From positions 11,005-75,004 of the forward strand of contig JACPGI010000005.1 in NCBI GenBank assembly GCA_016182565.1: a DNA stretch of 64,000 bases. Direction: 5' to 3'. The notes under the pieces were generated by a model that was given only the letters and a program-made list of their open reading frames with translations, had not been told where the DNA came from and searched no databases. Position 1 is the first letter of the stretch, and the number at the start of each line of letters is the position of its first letter. A program made the position numbers and the translations under genes. The DNA comes from a candidate division WWE3 bacterium (GTDB lineage Bacteria; Patescibacteriota; WWE3; UBA101185; UBA10185). Shown here in pieces: positions 4,589 to 20,025 of this stretch.

Positions 4589-5926
4589 GTGATAAAAACT
4601 GTGTCAACAATTTCGCACCACAACAAGTTCTACACCGTAGTGCTAGCATCGCTTTTTAAGTGTTTAGCATTTTTTACACCAATTGTCTTTACTTATCTGG
4701 GTTTTGAGTTTATCAAAACGTATTTCTTGTACATTTTGGGGTCAACAATTATTTGGGTCTTTACCCTGAAAAAGATAAATAGTGGCGAAAAGATTATTTG
4801 GCCAAATAAGTTTATTAATTGGTTTTTCTTGGCATATATTGTTTCGACGATATTTTCTTCTCATGTTTATACTTCGATATGGGGCTACTACTCACGCTTC
4901 AACGGCGGGCTTGTTTCTGTAATTATTTTATATGGTTTATTTGTCGTTTTACTCAATGAGTTTTCAAATTACGATATAAGAGCGCTTGCCGAAATTTCAG
5001 CACTTTCAATACTACCTATCGGTCTTTATGCAATAGCACAGCATTTTGGCTTAGATTCTTCTTTATGGAAAACTGATGCCACAACAAGGGTTTCTTCTAC
5101 TTTTGGGCAACCAAACTGGCTTGCAGCTTTTACCGCGATGGTAATACCGACAATTCTTGGTAAAACCTTAAATATAGATGAAAAATATAGTGAGCGTGTG
5201 GCATTACTGTGGGCCATACTATTTTTGATCGCTTTTACCACCCTTTGGTTTACTTACTCCATATCAGGACTTCTTGCCTTTGTAGCCGGGCTTCTTGCAT
5301 TCATTTGGGTAAATGGTGAGAGGGTAAGAGAAAATGCAGAAGTTATGCTTATTTTAATTATTTTTTGTGGGGTAATCGGATATTTTAACCTTGGAATCTT
5401 TAATGCAAAGGTAAAAAGTGTGTTTATAGACATTCAAAAGATCTACAGACAATCTGTGATGGTCAAAGCTCAAGAACAAGATAATATAGCTGTTACACCA
5501 AATATAGATAAAAATGATGGTACAAATGAGCAACTTTCTGACCCAGGTTATATAAGAACGGGCCTTTGGCTTGGAACACTAAACTTGTTTTTATCCTCGA
5601 ATAAAATCATGTTGGTCGGGACAGGGCCTGAAACCTTTGCATATGAATTTCAACAGTTTAGACCCAAAGAATTAAATTTTTCTTCGGAATGGGATTTTGT
5701 GATGAATAAACCCCACAATTATTATTTAGAACTTTTAAGTACACTTGGAATCTTTGGAGCACTTCCCTATTTATTTATAGTTTTACTTTCACTTGGTAAA
5801 GCAAGTAAACATTTCACACCGGGACTTTTGGCTTTTTATGTTTCAAATATTTTCGGTTGGCCAACAGTTGCTACAGCTTTTCTATTTTGGTTATTTCTAG
5901 TTGGAATAGAAAAAGAGGGGTATTAA
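4589..5926 (+). CDS. O-antigen ligase/polymerase (Wzy_C)-like membrane protein
   Basis: More than 10 TM helices with a large extracytoplasmic loop and a GTGPETF-type motif of the WaaL/Wzy family; sits next to the glycosyltransferase genes. Confidence 0.5.
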   Translation: MIKTVSTISHHNKFYTVVLASLFKCLAFFTPIVFTYLGFEFIKTYFLYILGSTIIWVFTLKKINSGEKIIWPNKFINWFFLAYIVSTIFSSHVYTSIWGYYSRFNGGLVSVIILYGLFVVLLNEFSNYDIRALAEISALSILPIGLYAIAQHFGLDSSLWKTDATTRVSSTFGQPNWLAAFTAMVIPTILGKTLNIDEKYSERVALLWAILFLIAFTTLWFTYSISGLLAFVAGLLAFIWVNGERVRENAEVMLILIIFCGVIGYFNLGIFNAKVKSVFIDIQKIYRQSVMVKAQEQDNIAVTPNIDKNDGTNEQLSDPGYIRTGLWLGTLNLFLSSNKIMLVGTGPETFAYEFQQFRPKELNFSSEWDFVMNKPHNYYLELLSTLGIFGALPYLFIVLLSLGKASKHFTPGLLAFYVSNIFGWPTVATAFLFWLFLVGIEKEGY

Positions 5927-6514: not shown

Positions 6515-7759
6515 TTATTGGGTAGTTACATAAGTTGCTGATACCCAACCGTTTAATGTATCGGAAACTTTTATTTTAAGCCAGCCAGTGGACTCCTCTA
6601 ACACGTTGTAAACTTCTCCGACATTTACTTTTGCTAACACCTCGCCGCTAAGTCCTGGGGTGGATCTTACATTTAGCCAGCCAGTGCCGGTCTGATTTAT
6701 GGTTGCTTTTTTGCCGCCCCCAGAAACATTTACTTTTGCCAAGGCCACTTTAGCATTTTCCGTTAAGCCATTTCCATCTGCGGCACGACCAAGATACGCA
6801 CCTTTATTTTTTGCGCCTAGTTCTCCAGAAGTTGTAACATCCACACCATCTTTATTGTAAATGTGTCCATTGAAATCTATAAAGTAATCAAAAACTACCT
6901 CTTTGTTTATACCGGCTCCGGCAAGATTAATCCCACGCGTCTTATTCCAATAAATCACAGCCTTTACCCACTCGGCCGGATTTGAAGCAACAACAGCATC
7001 AAGAGATTTTATATCGTATAAACTCTCAGATCCTTCTAGTAAATTGATCTTTACAGGCACTGGATTAGGAAACATTTTCATTGCAATGTTTAATTTATAA
7101 CCTTTTTGGATCTTAATTCGGTTGCTTGTGGATTCGTAACCTGCTTTCTCAAGCATCAGATCATATTCGCCTTCAGTCAATGTACTTGTGGAATAGGGAG
7201 TAACTCCAACTTCCGTATTATCTACAAGTACACGGGCTCCTGTGGGCTCTGAAATGACTTCAAGACTGGGTGTATCACTTGATTTTTCAAGCCAGATATT
7301 TTGCCCAGAAGAAAACACATCAGAAACCCCCAAATCACGATTGATGGCAACTTCAGAGTTTTGCAGAAAATCCAGCGCTACATTGTATGTGATCTGGTCA
7401 TTTTTAATTGAGAGTTTGTTCTCCCCGGCTCTTATATCTTTTGATTCAAGTGGTGTATTTCCTAAGAAATTATCATTTAAATATACCTGTGCGCTTCCTC
7501 CTACTGTACTTATGGTGAGCGCGGCTTTACTTTTGAGATTTGAGTAATTTTTAATTACGGAGCCTCCAAAATAAACAAGGGAAAGAACACCAAAAATAGC
7601 TAAAACATAAGTAACAATACCAAGTATATTTACGGATGGCTTTGTTTTGAAAAGTGGTGTGTTTGTTGTTTCGTACATAGTTTTATTTGTTGTGCTTAAC
7701 TTAGATGTAATTATATATAAACTAAACCTTTGAGAAAGATTGAAAATTGAAGCGATCAA
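6515..7759 (-). CDS. Membrane-anchored PEGA-domain and SH3b-domain protein
   Basis: N-terminal TM anchor; PEGA-like segment (GARVLVDNTEVGVTPYSTSTLTEGEYDLMLEKAGYES); C-terminal bacterial SH3-like segment (GWLNVRSTPGLSGEVLAKVNVGEVYNVLEESTGWLKIKV). Confidence 0.55.
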   Translation of the reverse strand: MIASIFNLSQRFSLYIITSKLSTTNKTMYETTNTPLFKTKPSVNILGIVTYVLAIFGVLSLVYFGGSVIKNYSNLKSKAALTISTVGGSAQVYLNDNFLGNTPLESKDIRAGENKLSIKNDQITYNVALDFLQNSEVAINRDLGVSDVFSSGQNIWLEKSSDTPSLEVISEPTGARVLVDNTEVGVTPYSTSTLTEGEYDLMLEKAGYESTSNRIKIQKGYKLNIAMKMFPNPVPVKINLLEGSESLYDIKSLDAVVASNPAEWVKAVIYWNKTRGINLAGAGINKEVVFDYFIDFNGHIYNKDGVDVTTSGELGAKNKGAYLGRAADGNGLTENAKVALAKVNVSGGGKKATINQTGTGWLNVRSTPGLSGEVLAKVNVGEVYNVLEESTGWLKIKVSDTLNGWVSATYVTTQ

Positions 7760-7831
7760 CTTCCACTCTCTAAATTAACATGACAATGGTAAAATGGCAA
7801 AGTTGATGTTTGAGTTTTAGTGTTTAAATAT

Positions 7832-7906
7832 GGCCTGGTCGCCAAGTGGTAAGGCAAGGGTCTGCAAAACCCTTACACGTGGGTTCGATTCCCACCCAGG
7901 CCTCCA
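7832..7906 (+). tRNA. tRNA-Cys (anticodon GCA)
   Basis: 75-nt cloverleaf: acceptor GGCCTGG/CCAGGCC, anticodon stem AGGGT/ACCCT with loop CTGCAAA, T-arm GTGGGTTCGATTCCCAC, encoded CCA. Confidence 0.85.
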
Positions 7907-7937
7907 ATGCTTAAAATTCACCTCAAATACTACATGA

Positions 7938-7966
7938 CCTATAGTCTTGACAGGCAGTGACTTTAG
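7938..7966 (+). promoter_or_regulatory. Consensus sigma70-type promoter (TTGACA, 17-nt spacer, TATAAT) upstream of the 108-aa ORF
   Basis: Exact TTGACA at 7938-7943 and TATAAT at 7961-7966 with a 17-nt spacer. Confidence 0.55.
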
Positions 7967-8044
7967 ACTTATAATACAAGTATGTTGCAGATGGTATACG
8001 CTGGAGCGTCCAGGTAACCACATAAATCTGTAGCGGAGAAAACA

Positions 8045-8371
8045 ATGAACACATCTGATTTTCTGTTTGAATCCAAACCCAAAGTAATAGCCCAGAATCT
8101 TATGTTTGGTCTCATAGCGTTGACATTCATCATCGTCACGCTGTTCTGGCTTCCTGAGCACCTTATTGGAAGCGGACTCAAGGGTTTGGCCGCCTCATTC
8201 TCCATCTGGGGAATTCAATCGATTGTGATGTTTGTGTTGGGTTACATACGGAAGTTCCAACTCAATATCGTACAACGGGTTGCACAGTCCATCCTGGCCC
8301 CACTTGCATTCTCAATCTGGATTGCAAAAATAATGACTGAAGCTTTCTTTATGGAACCAAATAGCAACTAA
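8045..8371 (+). CDS. Hypothetical small membrane protein in a higher-GC islet next to tRNA-Cys
   Basis: 108-aa ORF with 3 TM helices. Its GC looks roughly 45 percent against roughly one third in neighbouring genes. It has its own consensus promoter and a downstream hairpin terminator. Confidence 0.5.
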   Translation: MNTSDFLFESKPKVIAQNLMFGLIALTFIIVTLFWLPEHLIGSGLKGLAASFSIWGIQSIVMFVLGYIRKFQLNIVQRVAQSILAPLAFSIWIAKIMTEAFFMEPNSN

Positions 8372-8379
8372 TTTCAACA

Positions 8380-8421
8380 AACGGCCACCTGACAAAACTC
8401 ATGTGGCCGTTTCGCTTTTCT
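8380..8421 (+). terminator. Rho-independent terminator
   Basis: Stem AACGGCCAC/GTGGCCGTT with a 14-nt loop, followed by TCGCTTTTCT. Confidence 0.55.
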
Positions 8422-8452
8422 AAACATTTACCTTAAATACACACAAATCCAC

Positions 8453-8482
8453 TTGACACTCTAAACATTAGAGTGCTATATA
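8453..8482 (+). promoter_or_regulatory. groES-groEL promoter (TTGACA, 18-nt spacer, TATATA) with an embedded inverted repeat that may be a heat-shock operator
   Basis: TTGACA at 8453-8458 and TATATA at 8477-8482. The spacer holds the perfect 8-bp inverted repeat CACTCTAA-ACA-TTAGAGTG, which resembles the half sites of CIRCE (TTAGCACTC-N9-GAGTGCTAA) but is shorter. Confidence 0.45.
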
Positions 8483-8582
8483 TTCATACGTCAAAATAAA
8501 TAATATGTCGAAAAATCCGCAAGGCTGGGACATAATATTTAACTTACATTTAAACTCAAGTAATTATTTTAAAAAGGAAAAA

Positions 8583-8876
8583 ATGGCAACAATTAAACCA
8601 TTATTCGACTTCGTACTTATAGAACCGCTTGAAAAGGAGACAACTCTACCTTCAGGCATAGTTATTCCTGATTCAGTCAAAGAAAAACCTCAAGAAGGCA
8701 AAATTAAAGCAACAGGGCCCGGGAAAAAAGATGAGGATGGCAAAACTATCTCTATGACTGTAAAGGTCGGGGACATAGTAATGTACAAAAAATGGGGCGG
8801 GACCGAAGTAAAAATTGATGGTAAAGAACACCTTCTCGTGAAAGAAGAGGATCTTTTGGCAATAGTAGAAAACTAA
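8583..8876 (+). CDS. groES: Co-chaperonin GroES. The ORF-track start at 8505 is probably too early; start placed at the Met after the AAGGA ribosome-binding site.
   Basis: MATIKPLFDFVLIEP...GDIVMYKKWGGTEVKIDGKEHLLVKEEDLLAIVE matches the Cpn10 family; lies directly upstream of groEL. Confidence 0.9.
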   Translation: MATIKPLFDFVLIEPLEKETTLPSGIVIPDSVKEKPQEGKIKATGPGKKDEDGKTISMTVKVGDIVMYKKWGGTEVKIDGKEHLLVKEEDLLAIVEN

Positions 8877-8942: not shown

Positions 8943-10595
8943 ATGTCAGCAAAAAATATTATATATGGCGATGAAGCAAGAAAAAAATTAAAAGCGGGAG
9001 TTGATAAACTTGCAAATGCAGTTACAACAACGCTTGGACCTAAAGGCAGAAATGTAGGTATAGATAAAAGTTACGGCGCACCACACGTGGTACATGACGG
9101 GGTAACTGTAGCAAAAGAAATTGAACTTGAAGATAAATTTGAGAATATGGGAGCAAGGCTTGTCCTTGAAGCTTCTTCAAAAACAAACGATGTAGCAGGA
9201 GATGGTACTACAACAGCTACTCTTCTTGCTCAAGCTATAGTTGAAGAGGGACTAAGAAATATTTCAGCTGGGGCTAATCCGATGATTATCAAGAAGGGCT
9301 TAGAAAAAGCATCAGAGGCGGTAGTTGAAGAAATTAAAAAACTTTCCAAGCAAATCACCACAAAAGAAGAAAAAGCCCAAGTAGCAAAGGTTTCAGCCCA
9401 AAATGAGGAAATAGGTAATTTGATAGCAGATGCGATGGAGAAAGTGGGCGATGATGGCGTCATTACTGTAGATGAATCTAAAGGCTTTGGCATGGAGCTT
9501 GAATACAAAGAGGGGATGCAATTTGATAAAGGTTATGCCTCTCCATACTTTGTTACCAATTCAGAAAAAATGGAAGCAGAAATAGAAAATCCATTTATAT
9601 TAGTCACAGACCAAAAAGTTACAAACATCCAAGAGCTACTTCCCATGCTTGAAAAACTTGTTCAAGTAAGTAAAAACCTTGTAATTATCTCGGAAGACAT
9701 TGAGGGTGAGGCTCTTGCAACACTTGTTGTAAATAAAATAAGAGGCACTTTCAATGCACTAGCTGTAAAGGCCCCTGGATTTGGTGATCGCCGAAAAGCA
9801 ATGCTTGAAGATATTGCAGTATTAACCGGTGCTACAATGATAAGCACAGATACCGGAAGAAAACTTGATTCTGTAACTGTAGAAGACCTTGGAAAAGCTG
9901 AAAAAGTAGTTTCAACCAAAGACGATACCATAGTGGTAGGTGGCAAGGGGGATAAAAAACTAATTGCTGACCGAGTTTCCCAAATTCACAAACAAATTGA
10001 GCAAGCAAGCGCAGGATATGATAAAGAAAAACTTATGGAAAGAGTAGCCAAACTAAGTGGCGGGGTTGCTGTAATAAGTGTAGGTGCTGCGACAGAAACA
10101 GAGCTTAAAGAGAAAAAACTTCGCGTAGAAGACGCAGTTAATGCCACAAAAGCAGCCGTAGAAGAAGGAATTGTTGCTGGAGGTGGAGTTGCAACTTACA
10201 GAGCAAGGCAGGTCATTAAATCTTTGAAACTTGATGGTGAGGAACTAGTCGGGGCTAACATCCTATATAAAGCACTCGAGAAGCCAATCAGAAAAATTGT
10301 AGAAAATGCTGGGGAAGACTCTGGAAAAATTTTGGCAGAACTTGAACGACATGCAAAAGATCAAAAAAATGACAATATTGGCTTTAATGTCATGACTATG
10401 GAATTTGGCGATATGATTGCTCAGGGAATTGCTGATCCTGCTAAAGTCACAAGAAGTGGTATTCAAAACGCAGTTTCTGTCTCAAACATGATCCTAACTA
10501 CTGAATGTTTGATAGCAGATGCTCCAAAGAAAGAACAAAATGGTGGTGGAATGCCTTCCATGGGCGGTATGGGTGGTATGGATGGGATGATGTAA
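8943..10595 (+). CDS. groEL: Chaperonin GroEL (Cpn60)
   Basis: [36 protein letters not shown], the [15 protein letters not shown] motif, and a GGM-repeat C-terminus ([11 protein letters not shown]). Confidence 0.97.
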
Positions 10596-17230: not shown

Positions 17231-18031
17231 TCAGGCGACGCCGAAAAGTTTCGACAATGTCCCATTCGCAAGCAATATGAACACCACCACCACGACGACC
17301 ATAAATCCAATAGGGCCAAATATGGCTTTTGACCAGGCAGGGGCTTCATGCATTGCAGTGAGTCCAAGCGCAAGTTTGATGTCGTTTTTCTGCACAGTTT
17401 CCGCGTGCTCAATCAACCGCATCTGCACATCTTTTGCATTATCAAGGGCGGTCGTGGAAACCTGTTCCAGAGCGGCAATTGATTGAAGCTGGACTTCGAT
17501 ATCTTGTTGATGTTGCAATTCCTGGTACGCCAACTGCATCGCAAGAACCAGGTCAGTCCCTTCAAGCCGGCGCATCTGCACAGATAGGGATGCCATAACA
17601 GCTTCACGCGTTGTCCCCTTCACATCGAGAAAGGGCGTTTGGCCGGCAACTTGTTTCGCAATTAAATCTGAAAGGATCACAAGTTGAGCCTCAGCAACAC
17701 CGCCCGTGGGATCATTTGCGGTGAGACTCATCAAAGATGGCGAAACTGAAATTATGTCGCTGGATGGTAACCAAATAATGGCTTCGCTTGGATCAACCAT
17801 GGTTATAGCGCCGTTACCATCGCCACTCAACGCCACGTTGATCTTGGTAACACCTGGAAAGGCGTCACCGATCGAAGTCAGAATTTGTTCCTCAGTAAGG
17901 TCTATACCACCGCCAATTGCGACAGTGGGACCGGTGGGTGCATCGGTACCATCAGTATTCCACATGAATGCCGCGGCAATTGCAATCACAACGATTGCCA
18001 AACCAATCAAAATAGAATTTCGTGCTTTCAT
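17231..18031 (-). CDS. Hypothetical bitopic membrane/secreted protein encoded in a higher-GC island
   Basis: 266-aa ORF with an N-terminal signal anchor (ILIGLAIVVIAIAAAF) and a C-terminal TM (GFMVVVVVVFILL). Codon usage is rich in GCC/CTG/GGC, unlike the rest of the window. Confidence 0.55.
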   Translation of the reverse strand: MKARNSILIGLAIVVIAIAAAFMWNTDGTDAPTGPTVAIGGGIDLTEEQILTSIGDAFPGVTKINVALSGDGNGAITMVDPSEAIIWLPSSDIISVSPSLMSLTANDPTGGVAEAQLVILSDLIAKQVAGQTPFLDVKGTTREAVMASLSVQMRRLEGTDLVLAMQLAYQELQHQQDIEVQLQSIAALEQVSTTALDNAKDVQMRLIEHAETVQKNDIKLALGLTAMHEAPAWSKAIFGPIGFMVVVVVVFILLANGTLSKLFGVA

Positions 18032-18237: not shown

Positions 18238-20025
18238 TCATGACCCAGTAAAGGCGCTTAAAATACTCAGGGCGAGTGGTAAAAGCGCTCCAGAGGTCAG
18301 TGCGGCTGTTCGCACAAAGTCATATCCACGTTCCAAGCCTCTACCTTGACCCCCATTCAAGAATCCGGCGATAAAGGCAAAGGGCAGCACCAGACTGAGG
18401 GTTACCCATAGGGTCTGATTTACACCTGGGGCCAGGAATAAAGCGAGAAGCAGAATCACAATCACTGCTACCCAACCCAAACCGTAAGTAATCCAATCGG
18501 CATATTTAAGCATCTTTTCAGAGTCGTAATGCTTAAATGTGGCGTGGCGACGTCTCGTTTCCTGAAAGTCGAAGAATAAGATCGGAACCACAGTAACGAG
18601 CGCGGCAATCGGCAAACCGAGAAGCCCAACCAGCGTTTTGCTTGTAGGGCCAAATAGGTAATTTACCACGTATACTGCCATGATGTTGTTACCCCAAGAC
18701 CACTCCGTAGAATGTAGAAACGGATTAGCCAGAATGGCAAGATAACGATCTCTGTCTGGTACAGGCATTTGGGTGAAGGCTTTCAGGTTAAATTTGGCTT
18801 CGGATAACAAATTAACAATAGAGCCAACACCTAAAGTCAACACAAAATTTATAACCATTGGTGCCCAGATCATCAACGGGCTCGTGGCGCTTTTGTTATC
18901 TATTAAGACACGGACAATCAGGGCAATAAAGATAAAAAACCCAGAGAGTCCAGCAACCCAGTGGCGTGTAAACAACTCGCCCAAAGCAACCAGCAAAACA
19001 ACCCCAATCAAAAACATTTCGAGCTTTCCTAGTGGCTGATCTTTAGACATCAGGCCGCCGGCGCCAAGCTTATAGGTCAGGGAGTTCAATTTATCGATTA
19101 AGGGTTTGACATTCTCGTCCACCACACCTGCTACCGGGGCAACAGTTTGCCCTGCTACAACCCAATCAAAATAAGCTTGGGGAGCAAAACAAACATCTCC
19201 GGTTCCCTGATCCCAATAGGCATACACTTGTTGCTCGTTGTAGTCACGTCCCACTACTTTAGTTACCACATACAGGTTGGACTGTTTTAATTCCCCACAA
19301 TCTGCAGATTCCATGTCAATACTTCCAAATCCCTGATTTCCTATGTAACTGGGGGCAGGTTGAAGCTGATATACCACAGGCAAACCATCCGCAGTACGCT
19401 CCACAGGAGGTCTGTTCAATGGGCTGGCAGAATTGCCAGTCAACCCACTACTGACTGGGGAGTCACCGGGTAATAAATTAAGCAATGTTGGGCCAAAATA
19501 CAACCCTGCCAATAGCAGTACAACCGCAAGAAGTGAAAAACCAACAATTTGAGCGGTACGCCACATGCTTGCCTTTTTCTGCCCTGCATCAAATGCACTT
19601 GCTTCAGCGCTTTGTTTCTGCTTTTTCTCTTTACTTGCACTACGATAAGCCGCCATTGCCTCAGCCTGTGCATCACTAATAGAAACGCCAGCAAGCTTTG
19701 CAAGTTCCGGAGGCATATCAGTAAGATCATCTGCTTCAAGGTCTGGAAAAACCTCCTGAAGCTGGGAAACAGCATCAGCAAATTTTGTACCTTTTCCGTT
19801 CCACTCCATAAGAATCTGGAGGGGATCGAAAGCTGGTTTGTCAGCAGTTGCAGGTTTCACGGGCAATTTGCTAAATGCCCCCAACAGATAATGGGTAACA
19901 GCCGCAGTCAAATCCTTAAGACGCGGGTCACCTTTTGCGTTTGCAATCCACCTTTCCTCTATCTGAGCCAACGTTGCTAAAAACAATGTAGCCCGTTGCT
20001 CATCAGTGTATACAGTTGTAGCCAT
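18238..20025 (-). CDS. Hypothetical polytopic membrane protein encoded in a higher-GC island
   Basis: 595-aa ORF with a soluble N-terminal domain of about 150 aa, one TM, an extracytoplasmic segment of about 150 aa, then 8 or more TM helices. GC looks roughly 50 percent. Confidence 0.55.
   Translation of the reverse strand: MATTVYTDEQRATLFLATLAQIEERWIANAKGDPRLKDLTAAVTHYLLGAFSKLPVKPATADKPAFDPLQILMEWNGKGTKFADAVSQLQEVFPDLEADDLTDMPPELAKLAGVSISDAQAEAMAAYRSASKEKKQKQSAEASAFDAGQKKASMWRTAQIVGFSLLAVVLLLAGLYFGPTLLNLLPGDSPVSSGLTGNSASPLNRPPVERTADGLPVVYQLQPAPSYIGNQGFGSIDMESADCGELKQSNLYVVTKVVGRDYNEQQVYAYWDQGTGDVCFAPQAYFDWVVAGQTVAPVAGVVDENVKPLIDKLNSLTYKLGAGGLMSKDQPLGKLEMFLIGVVLLVALGELFTRHWVAGLSGFFIFIALIVRVLIDNKSATSPLMIWAPMVINFVLTLGVGSIVNLLSEAKFNLKAFTQMPVPDRDRYLAILANPFLHSTEWSWGNNIMAVYVVNYLFGPTSKTLVGLLGLPIAALVTVVPILFFDFQETRRRHATFKHYDSEKMLKYADWITYGLGWVAVIVILLLALFLAPGVNQTLWVTLSLVLPFAFIAGFLNGGQGRGLERGYDFVRTAALTSGALLPLALSILSAFTGS

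Follow-up and report, generated by a model that had tools for sequence, protein, structure and literature searches.

Hot spots of horizontal gene transfer that are flanked by core genes are described; they often lie beside tRNA genes, in many of them no mobile element can be recognised (Oliveira et al. 2017, PMC5635113), and they turn over by recombination in their flanks (PMC5635113). The present study analyzes a site with this pattern in a 64-kb stretch (the window, meaning the whole stretch of DNA that was analyzed) of a metagenome-assembled genome (MAG) from candidate division WWE3 of the candidate phyla radiation (CPR, or Patescibacteria). The element in question lies between tRNA-Cys and groESL, from position 7908 to about 8450, and is a cassette of one gene, for a 108-amino-acid (aa) membrane protein, with its own expression signals. 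It is probably the present occupant of a WWE3 tRNA-Cys/groESL hot spot and an old, vertically inherited orphan gene. Like the published hot spots, the WWE3 slot has core flanks, content that differs among genomes, a tRNA at one border and several occupants of atypical composition, and like those without mobile elements it has no integrase or transposase. It differs in being tiny (0.36–2.4 kb, one to three genes) and in belonging to reduced CPR genomes, and the comparison here is among species- or genus-level MAGs and not among strains. An orphan accessory gene at a tRNA-adjacent hot spot is an ordinary kind of feature, and this one documents a compact and well-bounded turnover slot in CPR/WWE3 bacteria, whose genomes are commonly portrayed as streamlined, with few mobile elements.

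The cassette also invites comparison with tRNA-targeted integrative islands and prophage remnants, which it resembles in its position at a tRNA 3′ end, its foreign-looking codons and its own expression signals. Unlike these, it comes without an integrase, without a duplicated tRNA 3′ segment and without phage or plasmid relatives, and it is as old as the split between the window and the locus that carries its ortholog (L084). The first-pass annotation, made from the sequence alone, had proposed a small tRNA-targeted insertion. That proposal is partly supported and survives in weakened form, with the gene as a long-standing occupant of a hot spot beside a tRNA, free of any integrase: the variable slot at the tRNA 3′ end and the atypical codons are there, but no integrase and no attachment (att) repeat were found and the event is not recent.

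Protein relatives were sought by running HMMER exhaustively over 1.84 billion cluster representatives and then by a profile search of 5.8 billion proteins. Loci for comparison came from GroEL homologs at 79–82% identity, which led to five further WWE3 loci, and from a homolog of the neighbouring PEGA protein, which led to the distant L082 (GroEL 65%). GroES as a query against GTDB genomes returned mainly Actinomycetota, together with one WWE3 contig (L002) that ends 242 nt upstream of groES. The ortholog-bearing locus L084 (CAZQNR010000010.1, GCA_964595135.1) encodes the protein P0002; its GroEL has an identity of 0.89 to that of the window, and both are at about 0.80–0.82 to other lineages.

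The slot extends from the 3′ end of tRNA-Cys (...CCA+A) to just before the groES promoter, which overlaps a controlling inverted repeat of chaperone expression (CIRCE). In the alignment of six loci, homology runs through the promoter and gene of tRNA-Cys and stops right after ...CCTCCAA. The left flank (Wzy_C, a 19x-aa gene, PEGA/SH3 on the minus strand, tRNA-Cys) is common to four of the six further WWE3 loci, and the right flank (groES, groEL and, farther on, RNase H, a Wzz-like gene and a DUF4012 epimerase) to all six. Between these flanks, loci other than the window and L084 hold the following, transmembrane being abbreviated TM, open reading frame ORF, and G+C content at third codon positions GC3:

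L088/L089, a minus-strand ORF of 56 aa in a slot of 363 nt
L092/L093, a multi-TM protein of 124 aa, unrelated, minus strand, GC3 0.54 against 0.25 in its neighbours
L090/L091, a DUF3147 membrane protein of 268 aa with genes for 218 aa and 201 aa (GC3 of the latter 0.50)
L082, a DinB-like protein of 154 aa and a protein of 605 aa resembling alanyl-tRNA synthetase

These occupants are unrelated to one another and to the 108-aa protein. The 124-aa protein of L092 and the DUF3147 protein of L090 were considered as relatives of the 108-aa protein, and comparison shows no kinship. Conserved flanks with unrelated content in each lineage mark the slot as a gene-turnover hot spot. The first-pass annotation had pointed to orthologous tRNA-Cys/groES regions as the place to look; most lineages have unrelated content there, but the L084 slot holds an ortholog, and only this nearest relative carries the gene, which is present at 0.89 GroEL identity and absent from four lineages at 0.79–0.82 and one at 0.65. 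The cassette is, as far as the sequences go, patchy among relatives but not recent. Contigs of four independent WWE3 assemblies (L002, L085, L095, L096) end within groES or about 60–240 nt upstream of it, which suggests that strain-level heterogeneity of the slot fragments assemblies here.

The elements of the cassette and its left anchor are, in order:

7832–7906, plus strand, tRNA-Cys (GCA), left anchor of the variable slot (ARAGORN; Rfam tRNA, 65 bits)
7938–7944, plus strand, CCTATAG with the palindromic core CTATAG, just 5′ of the −35 box and identical in the window and L084
7947–7975, plus strand, sigma-70-type promoter TTGACA-17-TATAAT (TTGACA 7947–7952, TATAAT 7970–7975; match at 12 of 12 positions)
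7986–8032, plus strand, leader stem-loop near the 5′ end of the predicted mRNA, 18 bp, interrupted (minimum free energy −21 kcal/mol, z −2.25)
8035–8038, plus strand, Shine-Dalgarno (SD) sequence GGAG, 6 nt 5′ of the ATG, read from the sequence and kept in L084
8045–8371, plus strand, 108-aa ORF with three predicted hydrophobic helices (GenBank HYV31_02685, hypothetical protein), from the ORF call and the ortholog alignment
8379–8420, plus strand, intrinsic terminator, a hairpin of 10+3 bp followed by CGCTTTTC, from folding and ortholog comparison

That the cassette adjoins tRNA-Cys was borne out by ARAGORN and Rfam, and each element lies where the first-pass annotation had put it. Gene order in L084 is a 190-aa gene, PEGA/SH3 on the minus strand, tRNA-Cys, a 106-aa gene, groES and groEL, and then downstream genes as in the window. 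The tRNA-Cys of L084 (1981–1999) is broken by a run of 10 N between duplicated copies of GGGTCTG, a scaffolding artefact that interrupts the gene and because of which ARAGORN misses it. The 108-aa gene and P0002 align over 105 codons without indels, with differences by codon position of 32/19/56, a proportion of nonsynonymous differences (pN) of 0.23, a proportion of synonymous differences (pS) of 0.71 and dN/dS of about 0.12; dN/dS here, like the covariation in leader and terminator reported below, is one pairwise comparison (window and L084). No antisense or alternative-frame ORF is conserved between the two loci. Substitution is codon-periodic and the frame intact, and the ORF is therefore read as a translated, constrained gene and not as non-coding RNA: on this comparison it is a real protein gene under purifying selection, restricted to its lineage. 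Divergence between the window and L084 was as follows:

GroEL, 89% aa identity, pS 0.74, pN 0.08
PEGA/SH3, 68% aa identity, pS 0.70, pN 0.22
other neighbours, 44–67% aa identity, pS saturated, pN 0.22–0.39
108-aa gene, 66% aa identity, pS 0.71, pN 0.23

Divergence of the 108-aa gene is thus indistinguishable from that of the adjacent PEGA/SH3 core gene. At core four-fold sites (n = 523), the difference in base class (G or C against A or T) is 0.377 against a saturation value of 0.376. Because the gene has diverged as its flanks have and core synonymous sites are saturated, the cassette appears to have been in place already in the common ancestor. The gene would then have been acquired before the split between the window and L084 and been inherited vertically since, and it could have entered equally well by flank-mediated recombination or by an old integration, now decayed, of which no integrase or att scar is left.

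Expression signals of the cassette are kept in L084 to a degree that the sequences between them are not. The promoter, whose −35 box begins forty nt downstream of tRNA-Cys, is the perfect match that the first-pass annotation had reported, and it is the sole exact match in the window, where about 0.04 would be expected by chance on both strands by an estimate from base frequencies. L084 has TTGACG-17-TATAAT, matching at 11 of 12 positions with equal spacing and a diverged spacer sequence. Transcription from this near-consensus promoter is predicted to start near 7982. The CCTATAG motif has likewise been kept while the neighbouring spacer diverged, and in L084 it occurs at 2066–2072 and again at 2104–2110, directly after the −10 box; it may be a protein-binding or UP-like element, or an operator for some regulator.

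Stem-loops at the 5′ end stabilise some bacterial mRNAs, for example the ompA leader. The leader hairpin of the cassette is like these in starting no more than about 4 nt from where transcription is predicted to begin, in leaving the SD sequence free and in showing compensatory change: of 18 pairs, two differ between the window and L084 by compensatory changes, one by a GU/AU change and none is broken. It is unlike them in that an interrupted hairpin of 18 bp that contains the conserved sequence GGTATACGC...GGTAACC may just as well be a binding site for a protein or a ligand. The conserved stem-loop would most likely stabilise the mRNA or bind a factor, with the SD sequence not occluded and translation starting from GGAG and the ATG, both of which are kept in L084. 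A scan of 7600–8700 with Rfam 15 covariance models returned at E ≤ 10 only the tRNA and noise, hence no family for the leader, and a model built from both leaders found no further copy in the window or in nine related loci.

The terminator has arms at 8379–8392 and 8399–8412 followed by CGCTTTTC, a folding energy of −18.9 kcal/mol and z −5.9, and none of 200 shuffles equals it, which bears out the hairpin terminator of the first-pass annotation. Its 13 pairs include two compensatory changes and none that is broken, and the loop CCTGACAAAAnTCA is almost invariant. The G+C-rich hairpin is followed at once by a T-rich tract, as in rho-independent terminators, with a loop longer than in textbook examples, and because of this long loop a consensus terminator scan missed it. 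Since promoter hexamers, leader, SD and ATG, and terminator are kept but the spacers between them are not, the elements themselves appear to be under selection. The ortholog thus supports the earlier proposal of a self-contained expression module, which would be monocistronic with promoter, leader, SD sequence, ORF and terminator all kept. The intrinsic terminator would end the transcript and insulate the heat-shock-controlled groESL from the cassette and from tRNA-Cys read-through. There is no hairpin directly after tRNA-Cys in the window, so that the cassette terminator plausibly ends tRNA-Cys transcription too; L088 and L092 do have such hairpins, and an alignment of these with the cassette terminator was unconvincing as to kinship. 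With promoter, leader hairpin, terminator and a CIRCE neighbour, the locus is a clean CPR example of complete expression signals, which could help to model promoters and terminators of uncultivated lineages.

The composition of the gene is harder to account for. The first-pass annotation had called its GC noticeably higher than the surroundings, which holds for third positions, the excess in total GC being modest. Total GC reaches 0.431, where the window as a whole has 0.374 and its genes average 0.374 (standard deviation, sd, 0.033), so that the gene is about 1.7 sd above this average. GC3 is 0.514; genes of the window average 0.31 (sd 0.05), and 0.304±0.040 is expected from the amino acids and the codon usage of the window, a z of 5.4. 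G+C at first and second positions is ordinary, and the excess therefore does not stem from amino-acid content. Third positions are near flat (A.25, C.28, G.24, T.23), and codons that are rare in the genome (CGG, CTC, CTG, TTC) are used freely. Both orthologs have GC3 of 0.51–0.53 (z 5.4 in the window, 5.7 in L084). Since core synonymous sites have no ancestral memory, a foreign GC3 should have decayed to about 0.25–0.30 in both lineages. mRNA structure was considered as a cause and was unconvincing, the fold of the ORF against shuffles giving z −0.76 for the window and −2.07 for L084, and an overlapping antisense gene was rejected because antisense ORFs are not conserved between the loci. The data do not separate two readings, selection on synonymous sites (codon choice or mRNA properties) and later or separate entry from a GC-richer pool; the former is given somewhat more weight because no donor occurs in any database and protein divergence matches the flanks. 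We would regard as doubtful the specific proposal that GC3 is selectively maintained in both lineages, and/or that the slot is fed by an unrecognised, integrase-free route bringing GC-richer genes for small membrane proteins. Selection on GC3 could act through translation speed during membrane insertion, mRNA stability or a capped output of a maximal promoter. If true, this would be an unusual codon-level selection or gene-delivery route in ultra-small CPR genomes. A compositional anomaly that outlasts synonymous saturation also calls for caution against reading GC3 deviation as recent transfer.

The most obvious alternative, given the first-pass annotation, is a recent tRNA-targeted insertion, in which a small integrative element or its remnant carried a foreign, higher-GC gene to the 3′ end of tRNA-Cys. 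The location fits, the slot varies among relatives, GC3 of 0.51 stands against a background of 0.31, and the gene brings its own promoter and terminator, but this explanation would not account for the same-slot ortholog in L084, which has diverged together with its flanks at saturation of core synonymous sites and largely refutes it. Nor were traces of mobility detected. The 25-nt 3′ end of tRNA-Cys has no second match with up to three mismatches anywhere in the window, so that the downstream direct repeat that the first-pass annotation had suggested looking for was absent, and no direct repeats bracket the cassette (7-nt seed). The slot has no integrase or mobility gene (its one ORF has no Pfam or NCBIfam match and among PHROGs just a weak holin match), and the neighbours are core genes. 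No donor-like homolog occurs in protein collections, and the 108-aa protein has no relatives among IMG/VR viral contigs or, by tblastn, among GenBank phages and PLSDB plasmids. Recent insertion is therefore very improbable. Scarcely more probable is that there was no insertion here at all and that the gene is ancestral to the whole group at 80–90% GroEL identity, displaced in the other lineages. Each other lineage holds something different, so that presence and absence alone do not reveal the polarity, and purifying selection would fit an ancestral gene. Parsimony argues otherwise, as the gene is present just in the two mutually closest genomes, no remnant of it is left in the 363-nt slot of L088, and its codon usage is atypical. 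That the cassette instead encodes no protein and is transcribed, from its own promoter to its own terminator, as a structured RNA of about 430 nt is hardly credible. GC of such RNAs stands out in AT-rich genomes, and raised GC, the covarying 5′ hairpin and terminator and the somewhat better fold of the L084 ORF region than of its shuffles could be taken in its favor. The 32/19/56 periodicity, the low dN/dS, the indel-free frame and the kept SD sequence and ATG are against it, as are the poor fold of the ORF in the window, the lack of any Rfam family at E ≤ 10 and the lack of a conserved antisense or alternative ORF. For the body of the transcript this idea is effectively refuted; the leader could nonetheless function as an RNA element.

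Independent or later acquisition deserves more attention than these and is still improbable. Diverged alleles could have come into the two lineages from an unsampled pool of about 50% GC (an episome, phage or other lineage) by recombination in the flanks, in which case the GC3 excess would mark a foreign origin and the gene would agree with its flanks in divergence by coincidence. GC3 of about 0.52 and flat third positions in both orthologs would then be expected, other occupants are GC3-rich as well (124 aa in L092, 0.54; 201 aa in L090, 0.50), and turnover of hot spots by flank recombination is known (PMC5635113). Four-fold sites are also informative: core sites are saturated, and the gene's own (n = 33) are less diverged, at 0.30 against a saturation value of 0.50. 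What speaks against such a pool is that no member of it occurs among some 15 billion predicted proteins or in sets of viral, phage and plasmid sequences, that at the amino-acid level the gene has diverged just as far as its core neighbour, and that the spacers of the slot have diverged as old common ancestry predicts. We therefore prefer an old gene, inherited vertically, in a slot that turns over. Several observations weigh against this. Simple vertical inheritance, with mutation biased towards AT, does not account for the lasting GC3 excess. The family is known from two sequences alone, so constraint is read from one pair. Contigs of P0005, the closest GroEL relative (92%), stop inside or just before groES, so that the slot lies outside them. 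The 108-aa protein has no usable match in Pfam, PHROGs, NCBIfam, PADLOC, a PDB profile search or Foldseek against PDB. AlphaFold2, run on the two-sequence alignment, places helices at 3–43, 45–69 and 75–102 with a predicted local distance difference test (pLDDT) of 62.7, a poor model, and the third helix of the window protein is weakly hydrophobic.

The protein resembles ORFan small bacterial membrane proteins in length (about 100 aa), in its two to three hydrophobic helices, and in having no family, a narrow distribution and purifying selection. It differs from typical ones in that its signals are unusually complete and conserved and its synonymous composition is off-genome in both copies. 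The product is identical to the WWE3 hypothetical protein HYV31_02685. Among the cluster representatives the family has one other member, P0002 (106 aa, 66–67% identity, E 9e-39), a second HMMER match being a repetitive protein and spurious, and the profile search gave no additional homolog. A holin (phrog_35473) was considered and rejected, with E 0.018 and 16 bits over just 23 residues, no lysin nearby and no phage homologs, as was a CrcB/Fluc fluoride channel, at 14.7 bits against an NCBIfam cut-off of 144 and with no crcB RNA match in the leader (Rfam, E ≤ 10). The first-pass description of a three-TM protein of 108 aa agrees in length and in the number of modelled helices, at low model confidence; by hydropathy, the ortholog has three segments, and the window protein has two strong ones and a third that is weaker. 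Helices 2 and 3 are joined by the sole loop that is clearly basic (R69, K70, R78), whereas the tail at the C-terminus is acidic. The positive-inside rule would place this loop in the cytoplasm, which suggests an N-in/C-out topology for the modelled helices. The stretches best conserved with P0002 are the N-terminal 23 residues, WLPE, IRKFQL, APLAF..WIA and TEAFFxEP. We infer that the protein is abundantly and constitutively expressed because the promoter is maximal, the SD sequence is good and the 5′ stem-loop does not cover it. Tentatively, it could be an abundantly made accessory envelope protein of an immunity, exclusion or surface-interaction type, a guess based on several slot occupants being small membrane proteins and on an envelope-biogenesis neighbourhood (Wzy_C, PEGA/SH3, Wzz and the DUF4012 epimerase, for envelope polysaccharide and wall-associated proteins).

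Beyond the cassette, the flanks contain these features:

7787–7795, plus strand, extended −10-like element TGGTAAAAT upstream of tRNA-Cys, in the common left flank and outside the cassette
8453–8482, plus strand, promoter of groES (TTGACA-18-TATATA) that overlaps with an inverted repeat like CIRCE, TTGACACTC-N9-GAGTGCTAT, read from the sequence, right anchor of the slot
8583–8876, plus strand, groES, core gene (Cpn10 Pfam annotation in homologous loci)
8943–10595, plus strand, groEL, core gene (Cpn60 Pfam annotation in homologous loci)

On the left, the block CTAAATTAnCATG...TGGTAAAAT (7770–7795 in the window) aligns in five of six WWE3 loci (window, L084, L092, L090, L082). In L088, the aligned stretch begins downstream of this block, and the sequence farther upstream reads TGTTAAAAT. 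By sequence, the block is a probable extended −10 promoter in a divergent region common with the PEGA/SH3 gene. On the right, ordinary groESL context resumes, as the first-pass annotation had noted, with groES at 8583 and groEL at 8943, apparently under CIRCE control. The CIRCE consensus is TTAGCACTC-N9-GAGTGCTAA. The groES promoter and CIRCE are kept in L084 (2586–2615), L088 (about 5598–5625) and L002 (about 163–190), with a variant in L092, and this conservation across WWE3 relatives implies that groESL of this CPR lineage is under heat-shock control of the HrcA type. The longest groES ORF has 123 aa, is called so on a Logan contig too, and starts 78 nt 5′ of the conserved MATIKPLFD start (8505–8582); the MATIKPLFD start at 8583 has its own SD sequence, AAAGGA. 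The groES 5′ untranslated region is about 57 nt longer in the window than in L084 (about 8500–8560). GroES of L088 (5677–5982) has a Cys-rich insert, GYESCGGECDCDCGGEMA, replacing GPGKKDEDGKTISMT of the window, that is like a metal site and unusual for a co-chaperonin.

Elsewhere in the window, two adjacent minus-strand ORFs of 266 and 595 aa (17231–18031 and 18238–20025) have GC of 0.49 and 0.47, the maximum in the window, and GC3 of 0.48 and 0.43. They have no significant Pfam match and are sited between the genes for ribosomal protein L25 and leucyl-tRNA synthetase; higher-GC orphan genes seem to recur as a class in this genome. Just after tRNA-Arg (60281–60356), a plus-strand gene for 236 aa (60455–61165) with GC 0.453, GC3 0.473 and no Pfam family may mark another tRNA-adjacent accessory slot.

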